This document shows positions 16,048 through 56,333 of a DNA stretch of 64,000 bases, piece by piece. The first letter of the stretch is position 1; each line of letters opens with the position of its first letter. The notes below the pieces were generated by a model. That model was not told where the DNA came from. It searched no databases and saw only the letters and a program-made list of their open reading frames with translations. The DNA comes from an uncultured Candidatus Saccharibacteria bacterium (GTDB taxonomy: Bacteria; Patescibacteriota; Saccharimonadia; Saccharimonadales; JAGQNK01): contig CAZWRS010000001.1 of NCBI GenBank assembly GCA_964636435.1, forward strand, positions 11,345-75,344, given 5' to 3'. The position numbers and the translations under genes are program-made.

Positions 16048-16068
16048 ATACCATGCTAACAGAGGCCA

Positions 16069-16097
16069 ATTCTAACACTTGGCGCACGAACTTTCAA
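16069..16097 (-). promoter_or_regulatory. Promoter for tRNA-Glu
   Basis: On the minus strand, TTGAAA (16097-16092), 17 nt spacer, TAGAAT (16074-16069), about 20 nt upstream of the tRNA 5' end. Confidence 0.6.
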
Positions 16098-16098
16098 G

Positions 16099-16127
16099 TT
16101 GCACTGGAGACTGAAAACAGGGATACT
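16099..16127 (+). promoter_or_regulatory. Candidate promoter for the second histidine kinase
   Basis: TTGCAC (16099-16104), 17 nt spacer, GATACT (16122-16127), back to back with the tRNA-Glu promoter. Confidence 0.35.
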
Positions 16128-16163
16128 AGTAACGATAAGCAGCTCGGCGGGACGCAACTCTAC

Positions 16164-17936
16164 ATGCAACACGTAAACGAAAAATGGCTACGCCTATTTA
16201 ATTACTACTATATCCTCGCAATGGTAGTAATGGGCGGCCCTTACGTCTACTTTGCCATCAACCAGCAATCTTTGTCCGTCACTGGCCAAGACATGTACGG
16301 CATGAGCATCGCAACGGGATTTTTTGCAGTACTCGGCGTCTTATACAACATACTTATACTGCGATACGTCAAGCGCACCAATATCTGGCTGGCTTACCTA
16401 CTGAGCTTCGCCTTCTTCTCGCTCACCTACAACGCAGCAGCAGAGGCTTCGCTTGAGCACACCAGCTCATACATATTCCTGTTGCACAATATTATCATTG
16501 CCTTTGCGGCAGCAACGTTCGGCCCCATCATTGCGCTGCTCGTGCTTGCAATAGTAGGCGTCGTGTTTGCAATGACCGTGTCGGGCAGCACGACTCCCAC
16601 CCTCTTGGGCACGGCAGGAGATGCTGTAACTGTCGCCATACGCGTTATCGGAGTGGCAGCCCTCCTGGTCTGGCTGAAAGACAAGTACCAGACTGTCGGA
16701 CCCACCAACCGCGATAACTATATTGAGCGTTACTTCGTCAGAAACGAAGTCGTCAAGCTCCTGACCGACTCGATTGGTGACGGTATTGTCATCATCGATC
16801 AAAAGGGAAACATCAAGTCAATTAATCCCGGAGCGCTACAGCTACTCGGCAAAGAAGAGGAGGACGTGCTCGATCTGGACTACCGAAGCGTACTCAAGTT
16901 TCAAACGCTCGCGCATGAGACGATTCAGGCCGAAGATGAGCTCGTCGCCAAAGCCATGAAGGACCTGCGCCCCTATAGCGACGAGCTCCTCATGACGGTC
17001 CGCGACAACGAAGAGATATTTGTCGATATCACGGTGTCGGTCATCGCTGACAAGCAGAAAGAAGACGTGTATGGTAGCGTCATCATCCTTCGTGACGTCA
17101 GCAAGAAAAAGCAGGAAGAAACTGCCAGGAGCGAGTTTATCAGTACCGCCTCGCACGAAATGCGCACCCCCGTGGCGGCTATCGAGGGCTATCTCGGCTT
17201 AGCACTCAATGACAAGGTCAGCACCATCGACAGCCGTGCGCGTGGCTACCTGGAGAAAGCCCACGCCAGCACCGAGCATCTCGGCCGCCTGTTTCAAGAT
17301 CTGCTGCTCAGCGCTAAGGCCGAAGACGGCCGACTCATGAGTGAGCCGCGCGTAGTAGAGATGGGGCAGTTCCTTGAGCAGCTCACTGAATCGCTCCGTT
17401 TCGTCGCCGAAAAGAAAGGTCTACTCATGGATTTCGTTATTGGTGCCAGCTCTCAGGAGCAGGCCAACCCAAATAACACCCAGATGATCAGGCCGCTCTA
17501 CTACACCCATGTTGACCCGGATCGCATGCGCGAGGTCATCACGAACATCTTCGACAACGCCGTCAAATATACCGATACCGGCAAGGTCACTATCGGCCTG
17601 ACGGGTAATAATGAAGTCGTGCAATTGTTCGTCAAGGATACCGGCCCCGGCATTCCGGCTAACGACCTAAGCCACCTATTCCAAAAATTCTACCGCGTTG
17701 ACAACTCCGCCACCCGGACAATCGGCGGCACCGGGTTAGGACTATTCATCTGCCGCAAGATTGTCGAGCTCTACAAAGGCCGCATCTGGGCAGAAAGCAC
17801 TGTCGGCAGTGGCAGTACGTTCTTCATCAATCTGCCGCGGTTAACCAACCAGAAGGCCGATGAGCTCATGAAGGCCGAAGCGGCCCAGGAAGCCAATACA
17901 AGCCCTCTTGATAAAACCGTAGCCGTGGTACAATAA
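16164..17936 (+). CDS. Sensor histidine kinase (multi-TM, PAS, HisKA, HATPase_c)
   Basis: H-box FISTASHEMRTPVAAIEGYL, N-box TNIFDNAVKY, G1 VKDTGPGI, G2 GGTGLGLFICRK. The ORF is open from 16053, but that stretch overlaps the tRNA-Glu promoter, so ATG 16164 is preferred. Confidence 0.85.
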   Translation: MQHVNEKWLRLFNYYYILAMVVMGGPYVYFAINQQSLSVTGQDMYGMSIATGFFAVLGVLYNILILRYVKRTNIWLAYLLSFAFFSLTYNAAAEASLEHTSSYIFLLHNIIIAFAAATFGPIIALLVLAIVGVVFAMTVSGSTTPTLLGTAGDAVTVAIRVIGVAALLVWLKDKYQTVGPTNRDNYIERYFVRNEVVKLLTDSIGDGIVIIDQKGNIKSINPGALQLLGKEEEDVLDLDYRSVLKFQTLAHETIQAEDELVAKAMKDLRPYSDELLMTVRDNEEIFVDITVSVIADKQKEDVYGSVIILRDVSKKKQEETARSEFISTASHEMRTPVAAIEGYLGLALNDKVSTIDSRARGYLEKAHASTEHLGRLFQDLLLSAKAEDGRLMSEPRVVEMGQFLEQLTESLRFVAEKKGLLMDFVIGASSQEQANPNNTQMIRPLYYTHVDPDRMREVITNIFDNAVKYTDTGKVTIGLTGNNEVVQLFVKDTGPGIPANDLSHLFQKFYRVDNSATRTIGGTGLGLFICRKIVELYKGRIWAESTVGSGSTFFINLPRLTNQKADELMKAEAAQEANTSPLDKTVAVVQ

Positions 17937-17977: not shown

Positions 17978-18985
17978 ATGGCAAAAATCATGCTCGTCGA
18001 AGACGACAACAACCTGCGTGAAATCTACGAAGCTCGTTTGCTCGCCGAAGGGTATGAGATCGTTTCAGCAGAGGATGGTGAACAAGCACTCGCTCTGGCA
18101 GTCAAGGAGAAGCCGGACCTCATCATCAGTGACGTTATGATGCCGAAGATCAGCGGCTTTGACATGCTGGATATCCTGCGCAGCACACCAGAAACCAAGC
18201 ACACCAAGGTCATCATGATGACCGCGTTGTCACAAACGGAAGATAAAGATCGGGCTGACAAACTTGGCGCTGACAGATACCTCGTGAAATCACAAGTCAC
18301 GCTTGAGGACGTGGCTAAAGTTGCCCAGGAAGTTCTGCAGGACGGCGATACCCTGCCAGCAGCAGTTACACAGGCACCCGAGCCAGCAGCAGCGCCAGCA
18401 GCATCAAGCCCTGCCCAGCAAACCCCGGTACAGCCCACACCAGCACCAGCACCAGTCACTGATATGCCGGTAGCAACGCCACCGGCTGATCCCGCGGCGC
18501 CAGCTGCTGCTCAGCCTGCCGTTCAGGCCCCAACACCAGCACCAGCACCAGCACCAGACCCCAGCACCAGCTCTGCGCCAACACCCACGGCCAACGCAGA
18601 TACAACGAACGCTGCCGCCAACGTTGCTGCCGACATGGCAAACGCCGTCAACAATTTGCTGCAAAACAACCCGTCCCAGACAGCTGACCCGGCAACTCCT
18701 GCACAAGCCCCAGACCCCACGCCAGCCGCGAGCAACCACATTGCAGGCAAGAAGGTAATTAGGCCCATCAACGACCTGTCCGCGAACAGCGGCCCGGATC
18801 TGAATGCGCTGCTTGCTAAAGAAATGGGCCAGGACCCAGGCGCTACCCCGGTAGAGCCACAGCCACCGACCACCACCCAACCAACCCCGGAAACACCCGC
18901 CGACGAGCAGCCAGTTGATGTGCCGCTGCCCGGCAATGTCCAGACGCCTGACAACCCGAACGACCCGAACAATATCGCACTGTAG
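17978..18985 (+). CDS. Response regulator receiver fused to a ~210-aa Pro/Ala/Thr-rich tail
   Basis: Receiver motifs VEDD, D in IISDVMMP, MMTAL, LVKSQ. Low-complexity PAPAP/TPAP sequence follows. No DNA-binding domain recognised. Confidence 0.88.
   Translation: MAKIMLVEDDNNLREIYEARLLAEGYEIVSAEDGEQALALAVKEKPDLIISDVMMPKISGFDMLDILRSTPETKHTKVIMMTALSQTEDKDRADKLGADRYLVKSQVTLEDVAKVAQEVLQDGDTLPAAVTQAPEPAAAPAASSPAQQTPVQPTPAPAPVTDMPVATPPADPAAPAAAQPAVQAPTPAPAPAPDPSTSSAPTPTANADTTNAAANVAADMANAVNNLLQNNPSQTADPATPAQAPDPTPAASNHIAGKKVIRPINDLSANSGPDLNALLAKEMGQDPGATPVEPQPPTTTQPTPETPADEQPVDVPLPGNVQTPDNPNDPNNIAL
18534..18557. repeat. Perfect tandem hexamer (CACCAG)x4 inside the RR tail
   Basis: CACCAG occurs four times in tandem. 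A second run of three copies lies at 18438-18455. Both encode (PA)n. Confidence 0.9.
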
Positions 18986-51901: not shown

Positions 51902-52291
51902 TTAGAAAGACTGCCAGCTGCCGCCGGAACTTTCACCGGGCCGCGGCGGCAGCTTCAGCCTAGGCGCCTTTCGTTTGTGATTATGATGTCTCTGTACCTC
52001 CGCCATGCCCAATATAGAGCCACCAACCGCACCTGCTAGCATACCGAATCTTATGCCCGCAAGCGTTCCATCGGGCGATTCACTAGACGTATCACTGCGC
52101 TCCGTCACCAATTCTGCAAGCTCGGGCTGGGCAGCTTCTATCTTCACCCTATCCACGGGCTGCATCAACACGTCCGCGACCCCGCCATACAAAGTACCGA
52201 CGAAAGCGCCACACACGCCACCAATGGCTGCCGCAGCCACCAATGACAGGCGCGAGGGCTGACTGGTCCCGAGCTCTTTCTCTCTAGACAT
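51902..52291 (-). CDS. Small Gly-zipper membrane protein
   Basis: Two Gly/Ala-rich helices (AAAAIGGVCGAFVGTLYGG and FGMLAGAVGGSILGM) and a basic C-terminus. Confidence 0.5.
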   Translation of the reverse strand: MSREKELGTSQPSRLSLVAAAAIGGVCGAFVGTLYGGVADVLMQPVDRVKIEAAQPELAELVTERSDTSSESPDGTLAGIRFGMLAGAVGGSILGMAEVQRHHNHKRKAPRLKLPPRPGESSGGSWQSF

Positions 52292-52367
52292 AAATGTTAT
52301 TTATACTCAATAGGCTGGTGAAATTCAAGAACCCGAAGACCCGCCTTCAGCTGATCAGCTAGCTGGC

Positions 52368-52865
52368 TTAGCGCTGCTGGCCTTTAACCGCTATGGCTAC
52401 GGCATCAATAAAATTCTCGGCAATTCGATAATCAGGCAGCTCCATCTCTATCGTGCCACCATCTTCGTTCAGAACCTGCAGCTGGTAAGGTTGCCCCTGC
52501 AGCACTGTCATTCTATAGCCCGTTGCCGCCTTGGCTGCATGCGCCAGAATAGCGAACTCATCCCGCCTACCGGTCGCCATGACTATACCCGACAGTACAC
52601 TTTCCTCATTCGTATCATCACGGCGCACCTCACTCAAGGTCGCCGTCGCTGATGACTGGTCCACTGCTATCTGCAGCAGCGCCGTCTGCCCTTTATCAAC
52701 ACCGGTGAGTTCATCGGTGTTGTTAAGCACCAGCCTGCCAATATGCACTGGCACGTGTCGCCGCGCCTCAAATTCGCCCACCCCGAAGCACGCCGCTATT
52801 CCGTCATATAAGACCTGGTGCGAAGGATACAGCCATGGCTGGCTCTGCTCGAGAGCAATACTCAT
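52368..52865 (-). CDS. Hypothetical protein (165 aa)
   Basis: Long ORF; no motif recognised. Confidence 0.5.
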   Translation of the reverse strand: MSIALEQSQPWLYPSHQVLYDGIAACFGVGEFEARRHVPVHIGRLVLNNTDELTGVDKGQTALLQIAVDQSSATATLSEVRRDDTNEESVLSGIVMATGRRDEFAILAHAAKAATGYRMTVLQGQPYQLQVLNEDGGTIEMELPDYRIAENFIDAVAIAVKGQQR

Positions 52866-52948
52866 GTCATTATTATATCATATTTGTTATATTTGGTCCA
52901 GCAATGAGCTTCTTGGCCATGCTGACGGGTGGCACCATAATCTTCCTA

Positions 52949-53632
52949 CTACGCACTCTGTTCTGGTGGGTACTCGGACGCCATATCTGTTTGAGGAAAA
53001 CCGTGCCGCGCAATAAGCTTTATGATATCGCCGGGAGTGTTTACCGGCTTGTCGTACACCGAATCGAACAACGACTCGTCCGGATTCAGGTCATCGATCC
53101 CCTCTCCAACAGGGGCAAAGAGTTGGCGCTGGTCCTTGAGTGCAAAAGTACCGAGTGGGACGGTGCTATACCTCGTGAAATAACCACACATACGCTGCTC
53201 TATGCTGCCTTGCTTTAAGAACTTGGTCTGCGTAGCCATGTCCGACCACTGTAAATAACCACCCGTATCCAGCCAAAAAGAGCCTATGTTACCGTGGCTG
53301 ATGAGCACCATGTCAGACACTTCTTTGTCCCCCAAGTCGGCATAGACTTGATCTTGCGTAGCCTGTCGCCTGATATCTACACCGCCATAGTAACCCTTTC
53401 TCAATTGAGCAATTTCTTCTGCCTCACGATGAAAGGCATGTAGTTGCTCTGTAGAAGGATGCTCGCTGTCAGAACTCGGTATGTTCGAGACTACAATAAC
53501 CAGTCTGCCAAGCTTACTGGGCAGCGACAGCTGATCATTAAGCAATTTCTTTTCATGATCAGCAACCGCCTTATGCAGCCTTGCATTGAACTTCCGTTCA
53601 CCTTTGCTCAGAGACGGTTTGGATATGGCCAT
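52949..53632 (-). CDS. Hypothetical protein (227 aa)
   Basis: Long ORF. The VSDMVLISHGNIGSFWLDTGG segment is noted, but no family was assigned. Confidence 0.5.
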   Translation of the reverse strand: MAISKPSLSKGERKFNARLHKAVADHEKKLLNDQLSLPSKLGRLVIVVSNIPSSDSEHPSTEQLHAFHREAEEIAQLRKGYYGGVDIRRQATQDQVYADLGDKEVSDMVLISHGNIGSFWLDTGGYLQWSDMATQTKFLKQGSIEQRMCGYFTRYSTVPLGTFALKDQRQLFAPVGEGIDDLNPDESLFDSVYDKPVNTPGDIIKLIARHGFPQTDMASEYPPEQSA

Positions 53633-53691: not shown

Positions 53692-54387
53692 CTAAATCCG
53701 GACCTGCTGACGAAGCAGATTGGTGGCGAGCTTAAGTGCGTCGGGTGCGCATGCAGCAGCGTCCGTAACCTGCTTGAGGACCAGCGGCTGATCGGTGGCA
53801 TAAGCCAGGCGCAGCAACTTAATATGATTAGCGACAAACGGTGCACCTTTCTGCGCGCGAAACGCCATATGCTCAAAATCGAACAAATATTGCTCCTCCG
53901 GCTGCAGTTTATGCCCCGCCGTGTCCGTCTGTAAATTGGGCATATGTCCCGTGACATTGAGTAGCTGCATACTGAACCATAGTTCTGTCAGGTCGGGCGA
54001 AAACTCCAAGTCATCCAGCGCCTCCAACGTCCGCTGTAGAATCAGAAAGTACTCCTCGCCAGCCGCGTCCTCGGTCACATGATTCATCCGCTTCATAAAT
54101 TCATACGACAGCATCGTCCTATTGATGTCTTGTACGATATTGCCGAAATGCCTGATCAGTCGCGAGGATACCAGCGTGCCCATATCGCCCCTGCCCGGCA
54201 AGACCGTGAGACTACTGACACTGAGCAGCTCAATGCCACCGGCTAGCTTGGAGCGTGGACGACGCACCCCTTTGGCTATAACCTTGAGCTTACCCTGGTC
54301 AGGCGTCAGGAGGGTCAGAATCCGATCTGCTTCACGAAAATCGGTGCGCGCCAGGACAATACCTGTCGTGATTATCTGATTTTTCAT
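53692..54387 (-). CDS. recO: DNA repair protein RecO
   Basis: N-terminal OB fold GIVLARTDFREADRILTLLTPDQGKLKVIAKGVRRPRSKLAGG; its ATG overlaps the upstream TGA (ATGA at 54384-54387). Confidence 0.8.
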   Translation of the reverse strand: MKNQIITTGIVLARTDFREADRILTLLTPDQGKLKVIAKGVRRPRSKLAGGIELLSVSSLTVLPGRGDMGTLVSSRLIRHFGNIVQDINRTMLSYEFMKRMNHVTEDAAGEEYFLILQRTLEALDDLEFSPDLTELWFSMQLLNVTGHMPNLQTDTAGHKLQPEEQYLFDFEHMAFRAQKGAPFVANHIKLLRLAYATDQPLVLKQVTDAAACAPDALKLATNLLRQQVRI

Positions 54388-54752
54388 GCCTGCACTAACG
54401 TGGCTTCGTTGACCGTACGTATTAGCTGCTGCAGGTTGGTTGCCGGTTTGTACAGATACGCCACCACTCCGAGCTCAGGAGTTATGGTCAGGTGCTGGTC
54501 AAACGCCAGCGTGTGGAGTATGATGGGGACTTTCTGCCATTCCTGGTACGAACGGAATTCATACAAGAACTCTACCCCGCCATGCCCGGGCAGTTGCAGC
54601 TCGAGCACGACGACGTCTGGCGTAGTTGAGTCAGCAAGCATTACTGCCTGCTGGCCGCCCCGCGCCCATGCGACAGTATGCCCTGCCCGCTCCAACGCCG
54701 TCCCGTACACATCCCCCAGCAGGGCGTCCGGCTCTATCAGTAGGACGCTCAT
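54384..54752 (-). CDS. Pseudo-receiver (REC fold with Glu at the phospho-acceptor position)
   Basis: Aligns to the other receivers in this window: LLIEPD, VVVLELQLPG (their xxxLDxMMP), IILHT, YLYKP. Confidence 0.8.
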   Translation of the reverse strand: MSVLLIEPDALLGDVYGTALERAGHTVAWARGGQQAVMLADSTTPDVVVLELQLPGHGGVEFLYEFRSYQEWQKVPIILHTLAFDQHLTITPELGVVAYLYKPATNLQQLIRTVNEATLVQA

Positions 54753-55444
54753 ACGAGGCTCAACTGGGCGCTGGGGTGGAGCGTAGCCGCCAGCCCGGTA
54801 AATTTATTATGTCTCGCGACCCTAAGAGAGGACTCCATCGTCTTAAACAAAGCATCGGCTACAAATACACTCGCACCGTTCGAACCGGTAGCCGTCGGCA
54901 TTGCCTGCTTCGCCCCGCCAAAGAGTGCCCTGCCGCGGCGCAGCATGTCCGTGCTCAATCCGGGTTGGTTATCAAAAACACCAGCCACCAGGCCGTGAGC
55001 GCTTCTGTGCGCGGCCAGAACCACGCGGTGTCGTGCACTTTCAGCCGTGCGGGTTTCTATCATGCCGTACCCCAGCAGCAGCAGTGCCGACTCCAGGCTC
55101 TGGCGATGCGCCATAACCGGGCCATACCTGCCAGACAGGCTTAATTCCAGGTCACAGTCATTCTGCCGGGCCAGTGGCGCCAGCTGGTGTGCTGTTTCAT
55201 GCAATACCGAGGCAACGGACACAGGTTCCAATTGGAAAACCTCTTGTGCCTGCCGGTCAGCACTCAGCAGGAAGCTGTCCAGAATCCGCAGCGCCGTTTC
55301 GGCGACGTAGGAGATGCTCTGTAAATCCGCGGTTTGCGGTGATGCCTGCCTCAGCTCTGACAGGCGGGCAATCTGTAGCAAGGGTAACTTTAGCTGCTCA
55401 GCGATTGCGCGTAGTAATCTGTCATCGGTGGTCGTGCCTGCCAC
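54749..55444 (-). CDS. Degenerate histidine-kinase-like protein (no His, no N-box Asn)
   Basis: LLRAIAEQLKLPLLQI sits where the H-box SHELRTPL is expected; LLLLGYGMIE sits where NLLxNA is expected; VFDNQPGL keeps a G1-like box; the G2 box is eroded; GTG start. Confidence 0.7.
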   Translation of the reverse strand: MAGTTTDDRLLRAIAEQLKLPLLQIARLSELRQASPQTADLQSISYVAETALRILDSFLLSADRQAQEVFQLEPVSVASVLHETAHQLAPLARQNDCDLELSLSGRYGPVMAHRQSLESALLLLGYGMIETRTAESARHRVVLAAHRSAHGLVAGVFDNQPGLSTDMLRRGRALFGGAKQAMPTATGSNGASVFVADALFKTMESSLRVARHNKFTGLAATLHPSAQLSLV

Positions 55445-55471
55445 ACCTCATACCCTCTTTCAATGAAAGCA

Positions 55472-55480
55472 ATTATACCA
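55472..55480 (-). promoter_or_regulatory. Extended -10 element upstream of the pseudo-kinase operon
   Basis: On the minus strand, TGGTATAAT, 27 nt upstream of GTG 55444. Confidence 0.45.
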
Positions 55481-55529
55481 TCATTTGGATACTAAGTTTG
55501 TTCGATTGTGCAGTAAACTGCAGTAATTT

Positions 55530-56333
55530 TTACGGAGTGAATTCGAGCGTTTTCAGCACAACGTCGTTGAAATCCTTGCCGAAGCTCTGTCCGGATAGCG
55601 TGCTGATGCGTATTGTTTTATCACGTAGTGGCAATACGACCGCACTGCCCTGCTTTTCGCGCTCGACTTCGCCATCTATGCGTGCACCTAGCACAGCTGG
55701 CACCCGCTCAGCCTTAAACGGCGAGACACGCACGGTGCCGCGTTTTGCGCTACTCTCATAACTCCCTAATACCCTATCGTACGGCTGTTCCAGCACCTCG
55801 AGTCGGAGCGCAAACGCAGCTCCGGATCTTGGCCCCGGCACAACGCCGCGGTGAAAATATCCATTCACTGGCGTACTGCCACTAGACTCATCGACAGTAG
55901 CGCTCCAGGTCTTGGGGTAGTCAAACCGAACACGCCCAAACGTGTCCGGACCGGAATACTTCAGATAGGGACTTTTGGATTGCTCGGCGTACTTCTGCTC
56001 CTCAACTTTTTTGGTTTCTTCGATAGCTGCATCTACCGCCGCAGCGACCTTTTGATCAGAATTGTTCTTATAGTCCTGCATCTCGGCGTACGCCCAAAAG
56101 GCAAAGCCGCTCGAGCCGAGGAACGCAAGCACGAATACCACGAGCGCAATAATTAATCCCCATGGCTTTTGCTTTTTTTGCTCGGACATCGATACGCCCG
56201 CTTGGGGATAGGACTGCTGGACCGGCATCTGTGGTGGTTGTAGCGGTTGACCAGCGGGCGGTAATGCCGGACTAGGCGGCATAGCCTGAGCAGGACCCGT
56301 CGGGGGCTGCTGATAGGGATTATCAGGATTCAT
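55530..56333 (-). CDS. Membrane-anchored protein with Pro/Gln-rich N-terminal tail
   Basis: PQ-rich 60 aa, one TM (WGLIIALVVFVLAFLGSSGFAFWAY), and a 170-aa extracytoplasmic domain not assigned to a family. Confidence 0.6.
   Translation of the reverse strand: MNPDNPYQQPPTGPAQAMPPSPALPPAGQPLQPPQMPVQQSYPQAGVSMSEQKKQKPWGLIIALVVFVLAFLGSSGFAFWAYAEMQDYKNNSDQKVAAAVDAAIEETKKVEEQKYAEQSKSPYLKYSGPDTFGRVRFDYPKTWSATVDESSGSTPVNGYFHRGVVPGPRSGAAFALRLEVLEQPYDRVLGSYESSAKRGTVRVSPFKAERVPAVLGARIDGEVEREKQGSAVVLPLRDKTIRISTLSGQSFGKDFNDVVLKTLEFTP

Follow-up and report, generated by a model that had tools for sequence, protein, structure and literature searches.

What could a kinase-shaped protein that lacks its phospho-accepting histidine do, when it is encoded immediately upstream of a receiver that lacks its phospho-accepting aspartate, and when both genes are coupled to recO? 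This arrangement is found in the window, i.e., the whole stretch of 64,000 nucleotides analysed here, which is part of a Saccharibacteria (TM7) genome and in which three minus-strand ORFs, herein genes A, B and C, were read from the sequence (Table 1). The first-pass annotation of this stretch had described the three as an operon held together by two ATGA overlaps behind an extended -10 element, had regarded A and B as a degenerate two-component pair, and had proposed that coupling to recO reflects a role in the control of DNA repair or recombination. Both junctions indeed read ATGA, and they are the only 4-nt stop/start overlaps that precede a real gene among the 58 putative genes of the window. 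The operon has its own promoter. The extended -10 element, TGGTATAAT, is present as described; a consensus promoter scan is silent at this site because a -35 element is absent. A -10-like hexamer (TATAAT or TATACT) lies no more than 120 nt upstream of A at 76 of 80 orthologous loci, and the pattern TGnTAnnnT is found upstream of A at 33 of the 80, against a background of 13%.

Table 1. Positions in the window of the genes, junctions, codons and signals of the A-B-recO operon and of its upstream neighbour
Feature	Position	Strand	Basis
Gene A, soluble pseudo-histidine kinase, 231 aa, GTG start	54749..55444	-	AF2 fold and alignments
Gene B, single-domain pseudo-receiver, 122 aa	54384..54752	-	Pfam PF00072 and RR468 alignment
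Gene C, RecO, 231 aa	53692..54387	-	Pfam and TIGR00613
E16 codon GAG, phospho-His column of A	55397..55399	-	Alignments to CpxA and to a window kinase
E51 codon GAG, phospho-Asp column of B	54600..54602	-	Aligns with D53 of RR468
Gene A/B junction	54749..54752	-	ATGA stop/start overlap, read in sequence
Gene B/recO junction	54384..54387	-	ATGA stop/start overlap, read in sequence
TGGTATAAT, extended -10 promoter element upstream of A	55472..55480	-	Read in sequence
GAGGG, Shine-Dalgarno-like, 8 nt upstream of the A start codon (GTG)	55453..55457	-	Read in sequence
UP, membrane protein with one transmembrane pass, an N-tail rich in Pro and Gln, and an extracytoplasmic domain	55530..56333	-	Conserved neighbour of A

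Gene A encodes a DHp hairpin (residues 3-66) followed by a CA-like domain (residues 73-222), and neither a sensor nor a TM segment. In the AF2 model (pLDDT 84, pTM 0.83, with low pLDDT over the lid region), helices spanning residues 3-34 and 41-66 are followed by an alpha/beta domain, so that the protein is predicted to have the DHp hairpin and alpha/beta CA (Bergerat) domain of a HisKA-type kinase. The best Foldseek match was HK853 (E 1e-11); DivL (4q20), also among the best, was matched with a TM-score of 0.71, and RetS, CpxA, CusS, an EnvZ chimera and others were matched over about 230 columns. No Pfam match to A was found at E<=1, and the NCBIfam PhoR and CpxA models scored about 15 bits, against curated cutoffs above 300. 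At E<=1e-3, the A family comprises 809 representative clusters, of which the best 150 listed are mostly of about 230-250 aa. Its representatives seldom match Pfam either (a weak match to HisKA in 7/148, to HATPase_c in 1/148), and 10 further, divergent members matched neither model. Conservation within A is highest in DHp helix 1.

The motifs reported earlier, AIAEQLKLPL with Glu in place of the phospho-His and LLLLGYGMIE without the N-box Asn, were found, and the alignments agree with them: E16 aligns with the phospho-His of CpxA and also with that of a genuine kinase encoded in the window (hhalign, probability 78%). Among 151 unbiased representatives, this column holds E in 121, Q in 10, D in 9 and H in 3, and none of 56 unbiased A/B pairs has His at the phospho-site of A. 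The column of the N-box Asn is G127 in the window protein and Gly, Ala, Ser or Thr in relatives, with no Asn in any family member read. A G1-like DNQPG, said to be retained, is present in the window, but the motif is lineage-specific and A-D-T-K-Q is what the majority of the family has. The G2 region, G-A-G-x-F-x-A-D, is glycine-rich in part only, and A has neither a G1 (DxGxG) nor a G2 (GxGxG) nucleotide-binding box.

Gene B codes for a receiver fold. It matches Pfam Response_reg (PF00072) at 8e-14, with 52.2 bits against a cutoff of 30.2, over profile positions 1-109 of 111, and 102 receivers in the PDB match it at E<=1e-3, RR468 being the best sequence match. The alignment with RR468 agrees with the description of B as a receiver that keeps the Thr and Lys switch residues but has Glu at the phospho-acceptor position. 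The residue corresponding to T81 is T in 41 and S in 31 of 72 orthologues, K102-P103 is found in all 72, and the aromatic Y99 in 64. The acidic pocket is also degenerate, which goes beyond what had been recorded before: the pair D9-D10 of RR468 is replaced by E7-P8, so that B has no Mg2+-binding DD, and E-P-D is found in 70/72 orthologues. The columns that are invariant or nearly so among the 72 are E7-P8-D9, E51, Q53, H57, G59, E61, T/S81, Y99 and K102-P103. A conserved face of B reads H57-S-G-I-E-F-L-Y-E-F-R-S-Y. As a point of comparison, three genuine receivers in the window had been said to read LLDIMMP; one does, and the others read LLDIMVP and ISDVMMP.

How general the acceptor Glu is depends on how the relatives were found. 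It is present at 72/72 genome loci, which were found with a Glu-containing pattern, and a scan of genome contigs gave a count of 81/81 that is biased because the peptide pattern itself included the acceptor Glu. We therefore turned to samples blind to the phospho-sites, from a HMMER search of representatives and from a metagenome scan seeded on helix 3 of the receiver. The acceptor residue was E at 99, D at 18 and N at 1 of 120 metagenome loci (tblastn), with 2 unresolved, and E in 46, D in 9 and N in 1 of 56 complete unbiased pairs; the window protein thus belongs with the Glu majority.

The trio is conserved. Counting loci long enough to judge, recO lies directly after B at 70/70 genome loci and 64/65 metagenome loci (134/135), and A lies upstream of B at 71/71 and 58/62, respectively. 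Of the four metagenome loci apparently without A, one also without recO, two were read: L097 has a very divergent A, and L088 is on a rearranged or chimeric contig. Because A, B and recO stay together, the objection, anticipated in the first-pass annotation, that recO might have other neighbours in relatives falls away. The 4-nt B/recO overlap itself is kept at 62/70 genome and 48/64 metagenome loci (110/134, or about 82%); the A/B junction, which ranges from -4 to about +16 nt in relatives, is less conserved. Both A and B are under strong purifying selection: compared with the closest relative, A has a dN of 0.12 and B one of 0.29, dS being saturated or impossible to calculate, and many columns of both proteins are invariant among relatives. 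That this is a degenerate two-component pair is therefore borne out by the AF2 fold, by the family-wide absence of the catalytic His and Asn from A, by the Glu majority in B and by purifying selection.

We also looked at covariation between the two proteins, as APC-corrected mutual information over 132 pairs. The top pair, A-R27 (His+11) and B-Y16 (helix 1), falls in the canonical interface and is driven by one clade split; 8 interface pairs are among the top 50, against 4 expected, a twofold signal that is confounded by phylogeny. Co-occurrence of His in A with Asp in B was considered and rejected, since the three His-bearing A proteins all adjoin Glu receivers.

The third gene is recO, as proposed: RecO_N (PF11967; 1e-18, 67.5 bits, cutoff 27), RecO_C (PF02565; 7e-6, 26.3 bits, cutoff 22.1) and the equivalog TIGR00613 (83.7 bits, cutoff 48.7) all score above their cutoffs. 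Literature searches found no description of a linkage between recO and a pair such as A/B, in keeping with what had been stated before. The entire block xseA-xseB-MT-UP-A-B-recO-glyS is syntenic across the lineage, and conserved gene order alone therefore weighs little. Moreover, recO is notorious for staying linked to functionally unrelated genes, era among them (PMC10582724). The recO-glyS neighbourhood is an old synteny in which era normally lies upstream, and most CPR lineages are reported to have lost it (PMC10582724); no Era is annotated in the cultivated saccharibacterium Southlakia epibionticum. The era-recO(-glyQS-dnaG-rpoD) arrangement of other bacteria (PMC10582724) resembles the one studied here in that recO lies directly 3' of an essential, unrelated gene and adjoins the gene for glycyl-tRNA synthetase. 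It differs in that Era is a GTPase for ribosome assembly, whereas here the upstream slot is filled by the pseudo-kinase and pseudo-receiver.

Published Tn-seq data for Southlakia epibionticum bear directly on what the operon is needed for. Insertions in the kinase-like gene SEML1_0246 and the receiver-like gene SEML1_0247 are lost (PMC10633639): SEML1_0246 is called GD/GD/ES, with normalised reads of 92, 3.8 and 0.9, and SEML1_0247, which had only 10 input insertion sites, is called NE/GD/ES, with 47, 0.75 and 0 (PMC10633639 Table S1). In recO (NE/NE/GD), 29 insertions were present at T2, with normalised reads of 1265, 513 and 295, and insertions in recF (NE/NE/GD) and recR (GD/GD/GD) are tolerated like those in recO (PMC10633639). 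The other genes for two-component proteins that were read, 0238, 0317 and 0318, are mostly called non-essential, with 0317 GD at the last time point, and the kinase-like/receiver-like pair is the sole essential-called pair among the two-component-like genes read there (PMC10633639). Polarity on glyS cannot explain the loss of insertions in the pair, because the tolerated recO insertions sit between the pair and glyS. The orthology of SEML1_0246 and SEML1_0247 to A and B rests on exact synteny, gene sizes, the 4-nt overlaps and Pfam matches (i-Evalues 7e-6 and 3e-4) that are about as weak as those in our scan of the A family. Some Pfam matches of the Southlakia kinase-like protein look strong, but these are conditional E-values, and the independent ones are weak. 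To the extent that these syntenic genes stand for A and B, the published Tn-seq shows that the pair is needed for growth and that RecO, RecF and RecR are dispensable. Thus, the proposal that coupling to recO signals a role in DNA repair or recombination control runs counter to the phenotypes, and the locus is a caution: a conserved 4-nt overlap resembles functional coupling, yet the fitness data contradict it.

On balance we favour, if by a modest margin, an essential pseudo-kinase/pseudo-receiver pair that does not rely on phosphotransfer and is no dedicated regulator of RecO; recO would be a co-expressed passenger. A and B would be cognate partners, derived from a HisKA-type kinase and the receiver that it served, and would have lost phosphoryl transfer. 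A retains the dimerisation hairpin of the DHp and a domain shaped like CA, but not the His, the Mg-ATP Asn or a conserved G1 box; B retains the fold of a receiver, together with Thr/Ser81, Tyr99 and Lys102 as its switch residues. Possibly, the A dimer still docks B via DHp helix 1, and B, held permanently in one, probably active-like, conformation, may act on an essential target through protein contacts. We read recO as a passenger because the pair and the recombination genes behave differently in Tn-seq; it would be the promoter-distal, translationally coupled gene of an essential operon, in its ancient position next to glyS, with the A/B pair where era lies in other bacteria.

It could instead be that the pseudo-pair assists or regulates RecO, with B, alone or on an A scaffold, binding RecO and controlling its loading on ssDNA in repair or natural transformation, and with co-translation matching the amounts of the proteins. 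Such a role is what the B/recO overlap would lead one to expect, as B and recO are apart in a single rearranged contig and the two junctions of the operon are unique in the window; a stoichiometric relationship between B and RecO would also predict that this overlap is the better conserved of the two. Saccharibacteria are, in addition, naturally competent (PMC10633639), and xseA and xseB belong to the same conserved block. That block, however, also includes an unrelated methyltransferase gene and glyS, recO keeps unrelated company elsewhere, and we found no evidence of fusion or of co-variation. The sharply unlike Tn-seq phenotypes, with insertions in the pair lost and those in recO, recF and recR persisting, make regulation of RecO unlikely.

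The absence of a sensor domain from A raises another possibility, namely that UP, A and B together make up a single module for transmembrane signalling, in which the PsbP-like extracytoplasmic domain of UP senses some cue at the host interface and signals to the soluble pseudo-kinase. UP precedes A at 70/76 genome loci and 33/38 metagenome loci, and its orthologue SEML1_0245, to which a PsbP/Mog1p-like fold is assigned, is called ES/ES/ES (PMC10633639 Tables S1, S2), so that the orthologues of UP, A and B are all required in Southlakia epibionticum, and the flanking methyltransferase and recO are not. But UP has its own stop, and the gap of 85 nt between UP and A holds the conserved promoter of A; moreover, A-B-recO is kept without UP at several loci (L024, L025, L027, L044 and L045). 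The few relatives read show a cytoplasmic tail of UP that is short, of low complexity and unconserved, and that therefore offers no obvious surface for A. We consider such a module quite improbable.

It also seems conceivable that phosphoryl chemistry persists in the pair, at least in the Asp subclade, with A as a His-independent phosphatase or binding partner for a receiver that obtains its phosphoryl group from acetyl phosphate or another kinase; the Glu forms would then be later, locked-on derivatives. An Asp acceptor with an E-x-D pocket occurs in 9/56 unbiased pairs, most of these retain Thr/Ser and Lys, His occurs in rare A members, and the phosphatase activity of HisKA proteins is not strictly His-dependent (PMC12632262). 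The existence of a subclade of receivers that retain Asp means that phosphorylation may still matter in some members. Nevertheless, none of the 56 unbiased pairs joins His in A with Asp in B, the His-bearing A proteins adjoin Glu receivers, the N-box Asn is absent from every member read, and the lineage of the window has a Glu acceptor with Pro as the second acidic residue; for the pair as a whole, we regard this possibility as very unlikely. Least probable of all seems to us a phosphorylation-free A2B2 switch, essential and unique to Saccharibacteria, in which B and RecO are co-translated because they associate physically, as B-RecO or A-B-RecO; such a complex would couple an essential process, for example the cell cycle, attachment to the host or the uptake of DNA for nucleotide salvage, to the recombinational handling of incoming or damaged DNA.

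Returning to a pair that acts without phosphotransfer, its components have counterparts among known proteins. DivL of Caulobacter is anchored in the membrane, carries PAS sensor domains and has Tyr at the phospho-site; the receiver with which it pairs, DivK, is genuine and can be phosphorylated. As with A and B, a kinase-shaped protein without the phospho-His serves there as a platform that binds a single-domain receiver (PMC4211667; PMC5361649). In contrast, both partners are dead here and A is reduced to a DHp-CA core, with no known downstream kinase. B may bind to the DHp of A, with relay to another protein, as for DivL and DivK; indirect support for this comes from the high conservation of DHp helix 1. 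The HK853-RR468 complex of Thermotoga (3dge), a canonical HisKA kinase-receiver complex, provides both the best fold match for A and the best sequence match for B, and is a docking template; however, His260, the N-box Asn and the G boxes of HK853, and D9, D10 and D53 of RR468, are all replaced in A and B.

Pseudo-receivers and pseudo-histidine kinases are thus known kinds of proteins, and it is the mechanism of the A/B pair that we infer. About 2% of receivers are without the Asp and 0.9% of HisKA domains without the His, and the working of bacterial pseudo-receivers is described as little understood, in a 2025 review (PMC12632262). What is unusual is a cognate pair with both partners dead that has been retained at virtually all related loci examined across Saccharibacteria, a lineage whose genomes measure about 1 Mb. 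Southlakia epibionticum is genetically tractable, and the function of a kinase/receiver scaffold independent of phosphorylation could be addressed cleanly there. The Glu pseudo-receivers covered in the same review, of plant PRR/TOC1, fungal Rim15p and bacterial aspartate-less receivers, share with B the receiver fold, the replacement of Asp by Glu, which is the commonest, and a presumed phosphorylation-independent action (PMC12632262). The plant PRRs and Rim15p are multi-domain proteins for which the part of the review drawn on here describes no dead-kinase partner (PMC12632262), whereas B is a stand-alone receiver whose gene adjoins that of its dead cognate kinase and which a relative needs for growth.

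Three minus-strand genes, encoding a pseudo-histidine kinase (A), a pseudo-receiver (B) and RecO (C), are joined by two ATGA junctions, each of them, as read in the sequence, a 4-nt overlap of a stop with the start that follows. No other 4-nt overlap among the window's 58 putative genes leads into a real gene. GAGGG stands 8 nt ahead of the start codon of A, behind the promoter element TGGTATAAT, which a consensus promoter scan of the window did not flag because it has no -35 element. A genome scan with one genome per species gave 80 related loci, of which nearly all carry the label Saccharibacteria or Saccharimonadales; in the closest, A is 80% and RecO 89% identical. The window therefore belongs to a Saccharibacteria (TM7, Patescibacteria) genome. 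Upstream of A, 76 of the 80 have a TATAAT or TATACT hexamer, and the -10 has a TG extension in 33 of the 80, against a background of 13%. That the hexamer is kept in relatives suggests that A, B and recO are served by their own predicted promoter. A short inverted repeat, with no T-run on the transcribed (minus) strand, immediately follows the stop of the upstream gene (UP), ahead of this promoter. Antisense to B runs a shadow ORF slightly longer than B itself, by which a longest-ORF gene caller would be misled at B.

Features of the window discussed in the text
Feature	Coordinates	Strand	Description
UP	55530-56333	minus	conserved; single-pass membrane protein, Pro/Gln-rich N-terminal tail
Inverted repeat TGCAGTAAACTGCA	55509-55522		
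Promoter element TGGTATAAT	55480-55472	minus	sequence read
A	54749-55444	minus	ORF, 231 aa, GTG start
C-terminal region of A	54752-54790	minus	conserved motif
B	54384-54752	minus	ORF, 122 aa
Shadow ORF	54400-54786	plus	128 aa
C (RecO)	53692-54387	minus	ORF, 231 aa
Three ORFs between recO and glyS	51902-53632	minus	129, 165, 227 aa
Receiver	17978-18985	plus	genuine (ISDVMMP)
Sensor kinase	16053-17936		627 aa

A had no match in a Pfam scan, and its similarity to PhoR and CpxA in profile and structure-sequence comparisons was marginal. The AlphaFold2 model, built with 94 homologues as input (pLDDT 84, pTM 0.83), has a pair of long helices and then an alpha/beta domain, and the top 50 Foldseek matches in the PDB were all DHp-CA kinase cores, the best being HK853 (E 1e-11) and DivL (TM-score 0.71), then RetS, CusS and CpxA. 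E16 falls at the phospho-His column and G127 at the N-box Asn column both in the alignment to CpxA and when profiles are aligned with a genuine kinase of the same window (probability 78%). The DHp and CA domains consume the 231 residues of A, which therefore lacks any sensor or membrane segment. The best-conserved portion is DHp helix 1 (RLLxALAEQLKLPLLQIAR). A second motif, P-S-x-Q-L-x-L-V, is highly conserved at the C-terminus, relatives included; Gln227 is invariant in 151/151 representatives, in a part of the model where confidence is low. These C-terminal residues may form a docking tail.

Pfam identifies B as a receiver (52 bits, cutoff 30). Aligned to RR468, it has E51 for the acceptor D53 and E7-P8 for the metal-binding pair D9-D10, and keeps the receiver Thr and Lys. 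Its invariant set comprises E7-P8-D9, E51, Q53, H57, G59, E61-F62, R67-S68-Y69 and K102-P103. The two genuine kinases of the window, like its three genuine receivers, have the canonical residues. A and B are a pseudo-kinase and a pseudo-receiver, outside the working members of their classes, whose defining catalytic tests they fail. C exceeds the cutoffs of RecO_N, RecO_C and TIGR00613. The first-pass annotation had read the locus as three ATGA-coupled genes behind TGGTATAAT, encoding a kinase-shaped protein without phospho-His or N-box Asn, a receiver with Glu for the phospho-Asp and RecO; the ORF coordinates, junctions, alignments and domain matches agree with it.

The A family has 395 matches in a 90%-identity database; at E<=1e-3 it comprises 809 representative clusters, mostly about 230-250 aa long among the best 150 clusters. 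As the genome-scan pattern itself contained the Glu, residues were counted in two unbiased samples: 151 HMMER representatives, and the 56 pairs that were complete among 120 metagenome loci found with a receiver-helix-3 seed. In the former, the His column of A holds Glu in 121, Gln in 10, Asp in 9 and His in 3, and the N-box Asn is absent from every member read. In the latter, the A/B sites are E/E in 38 pairs, D/D in 7, D/E in 3 and Q/E in 2, with L/E, G/E, Y/E, N/D, E/N and unaligned/D once each; none of the 56 has His in A. The three His-bearing proteins (P0244, P0233 and P0211; loci L081-L085; e.g. ALAHDLRLPL) also lack the N-box Asn, and their neighbours are still a Glu receiver and recO. 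Receivers that keep Asp form one subclade, which may represent an earlier stage of decay; their partner A proteins read LSDDLALPLLQIK, in which Asp occupies the His column. The metagenome loci of this subclade (L089, L117, L138, L143, L150, L174 and L178) have the pocket E-[STAP]-D. Values of dN to the closest relative (A 0.12, B 0.29, RecO 0.07; dS saturated or not calculable) point to strong purifying selection.

Conservation of the trio across relatives had been set beforehand as a test, and it was found: B is followed directly by recO in 70/70 genome loci and 64/65 metagenome loci, with the 4-nt overlap in 62 and 48 of these loci, respectively. The sole exception, L088, is a rearranged or chimeric contig; there the receiver gene stops short at Lys102 and runs into AT-rich DNA of foreign appearance where recO would be expected. 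A lies upstream of B wherever contig extent permits, with four apparent exceptions. Two were read: one is this same contig, and the other, L097, has a very divergent A. This gene (1167-1859 of L097, with an identical ORF at 2431-3123 of L088) belongs to a low-GC lineage and was missed by tblastn; it has no His and has lost the H-box Pro, and retains the size, position and C-terminal QL motif. Conservation extends over the entire block xseA-xseB-methyltransferase-UP-A-B-recO-(variable)-glyS, and therefore order alone says little on function. The stable core of the block is A-B-recO; the variable parts are the recO-glyS stretch and, at a small number of loci, the region before A. The former is a variable insertion spot within an otherwise fixed order: its length varies widely, its 165-aa and 227-aa ORFs had no match in a Pfam/NCBIfam scan, and in only 4-5/80 related loci is a homologue of the 227-aa ORF present at this position.

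Tn-seq data are available for Southlakia epibionticum (Wang et al., Cell 2023, PMC10633639), in which the order is xseA, xseB, methyltransferase, a 220-aa hypothetical protein, kinase-like, receiver-like, RecO and GlyRS, with the same 4-nt overlaps. The kinase-like SEML1_0246, annotated as a 235-aa 'HAMP domain-containing histidine kinase', was called GD/GD/ES (32 input sites; normalised reads of 92, 3.8 and 0.9 at T0, T1 and T2), and SEML1_0247, a 121-aa 'response regulator', NE/GD/ES (10 input sites; 47, 0.75 and 0). RecO (SEML1_0248) was NE/NE/GD (1265, 513 and 295, with 29 insertions at T2), and RecF (NE/NE/GD) and RecR (GD/GD/GD) behaved in the same way (PMC10633639). Polarity on glyS as the cause of the loss of A and B insertions is ruled out, because insertions in recO, which lies between the pair and glyS, are tolerated. 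The other two-component genes read were called non-essential, save SEML1_0317, GD at the last time point (PMC10633639). The Pfam matches of SEML1_0246 are weak by independent E-values (6.9e-6 and 3.4e-4; PMC10633639 table), similar to the best weak matches among A-family representatives, and family frequencies suggest that the Southlakia pair is E/E. The terms 'histidine kinase' and 'response regulator' never occur in the main text of PMC10633639, and the locus tags of the pair are unnamed in the other literature searched.

Linkage to recO had suggested a role in recombination control. This proposal is not borne out by the tolerance of recO, recF and recR insertions where those in A and B are lost, and is further weakened by the synteny of the whole block. 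Across bacteria, recO is found downstream of era and beside glyQS, dnaG and rpoD, and most CPR phyla are reported to have lost era (PMC10582724); no Era is annotated in the Southlakia tables (PMC10633639). The recO-glyS adjacency here belongs to this old synteny, with the pseudo-pair filling era's usual slot, and recO is probably a passenger.

The other part of that proposal, a degenerate and rewired two-component pair, is supported: neither the two phosphotransfer sites nor the ATP-binding residues survive, the fold and the receiver switch residues are retained, and A and B are strongly constrained. A would act as a dimeric docking scaffold and B as a receiver fixed in one state by its Glu, the pair acting on an essential target through protein contacts. 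Covariation gives as top inter-protein pair A His+11 and B helix 1, at the canonical interface, a pair that reflects one clade split. The closest functional analogue is DivL-DivK, which has a genuine receiver and a kinase that bears sensor domains; here, in contrast, the receiver is dead and A has no sensor domain. Glu-type pseudo-receivers are common. According to reviews, Glu at the acceptor is often, but not always, phosphomimetic, and about 2% of receivers are without Asp and 0.9% of HisKA domains without His (PMC12632262). Dead in both partners, cognate and lineage-wide, the A-B pair is apparently essential and well suited to genetic work in Southlakia.

UP was considered as part of the A-B system and rejected: it has its own gene boundary, it is missing from some loci, and among the few relatives read its cytoplasmic part is not conserved. 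Its Southlakia orthologue (SEML1_0245; ES/ES/ES, normalised reads 4.9, 0 and 0) is essential and Patescibacteria-enriched, with an assigned PsbP/Mog1p-like fold (PMC10633639). Elsewhere in the window, one genuine receiver, adjoining a sensor kinase, continues into a low-complexity stretch of about 200 residues rich in Pro, Ala and Thr, with no recognisable output domain.
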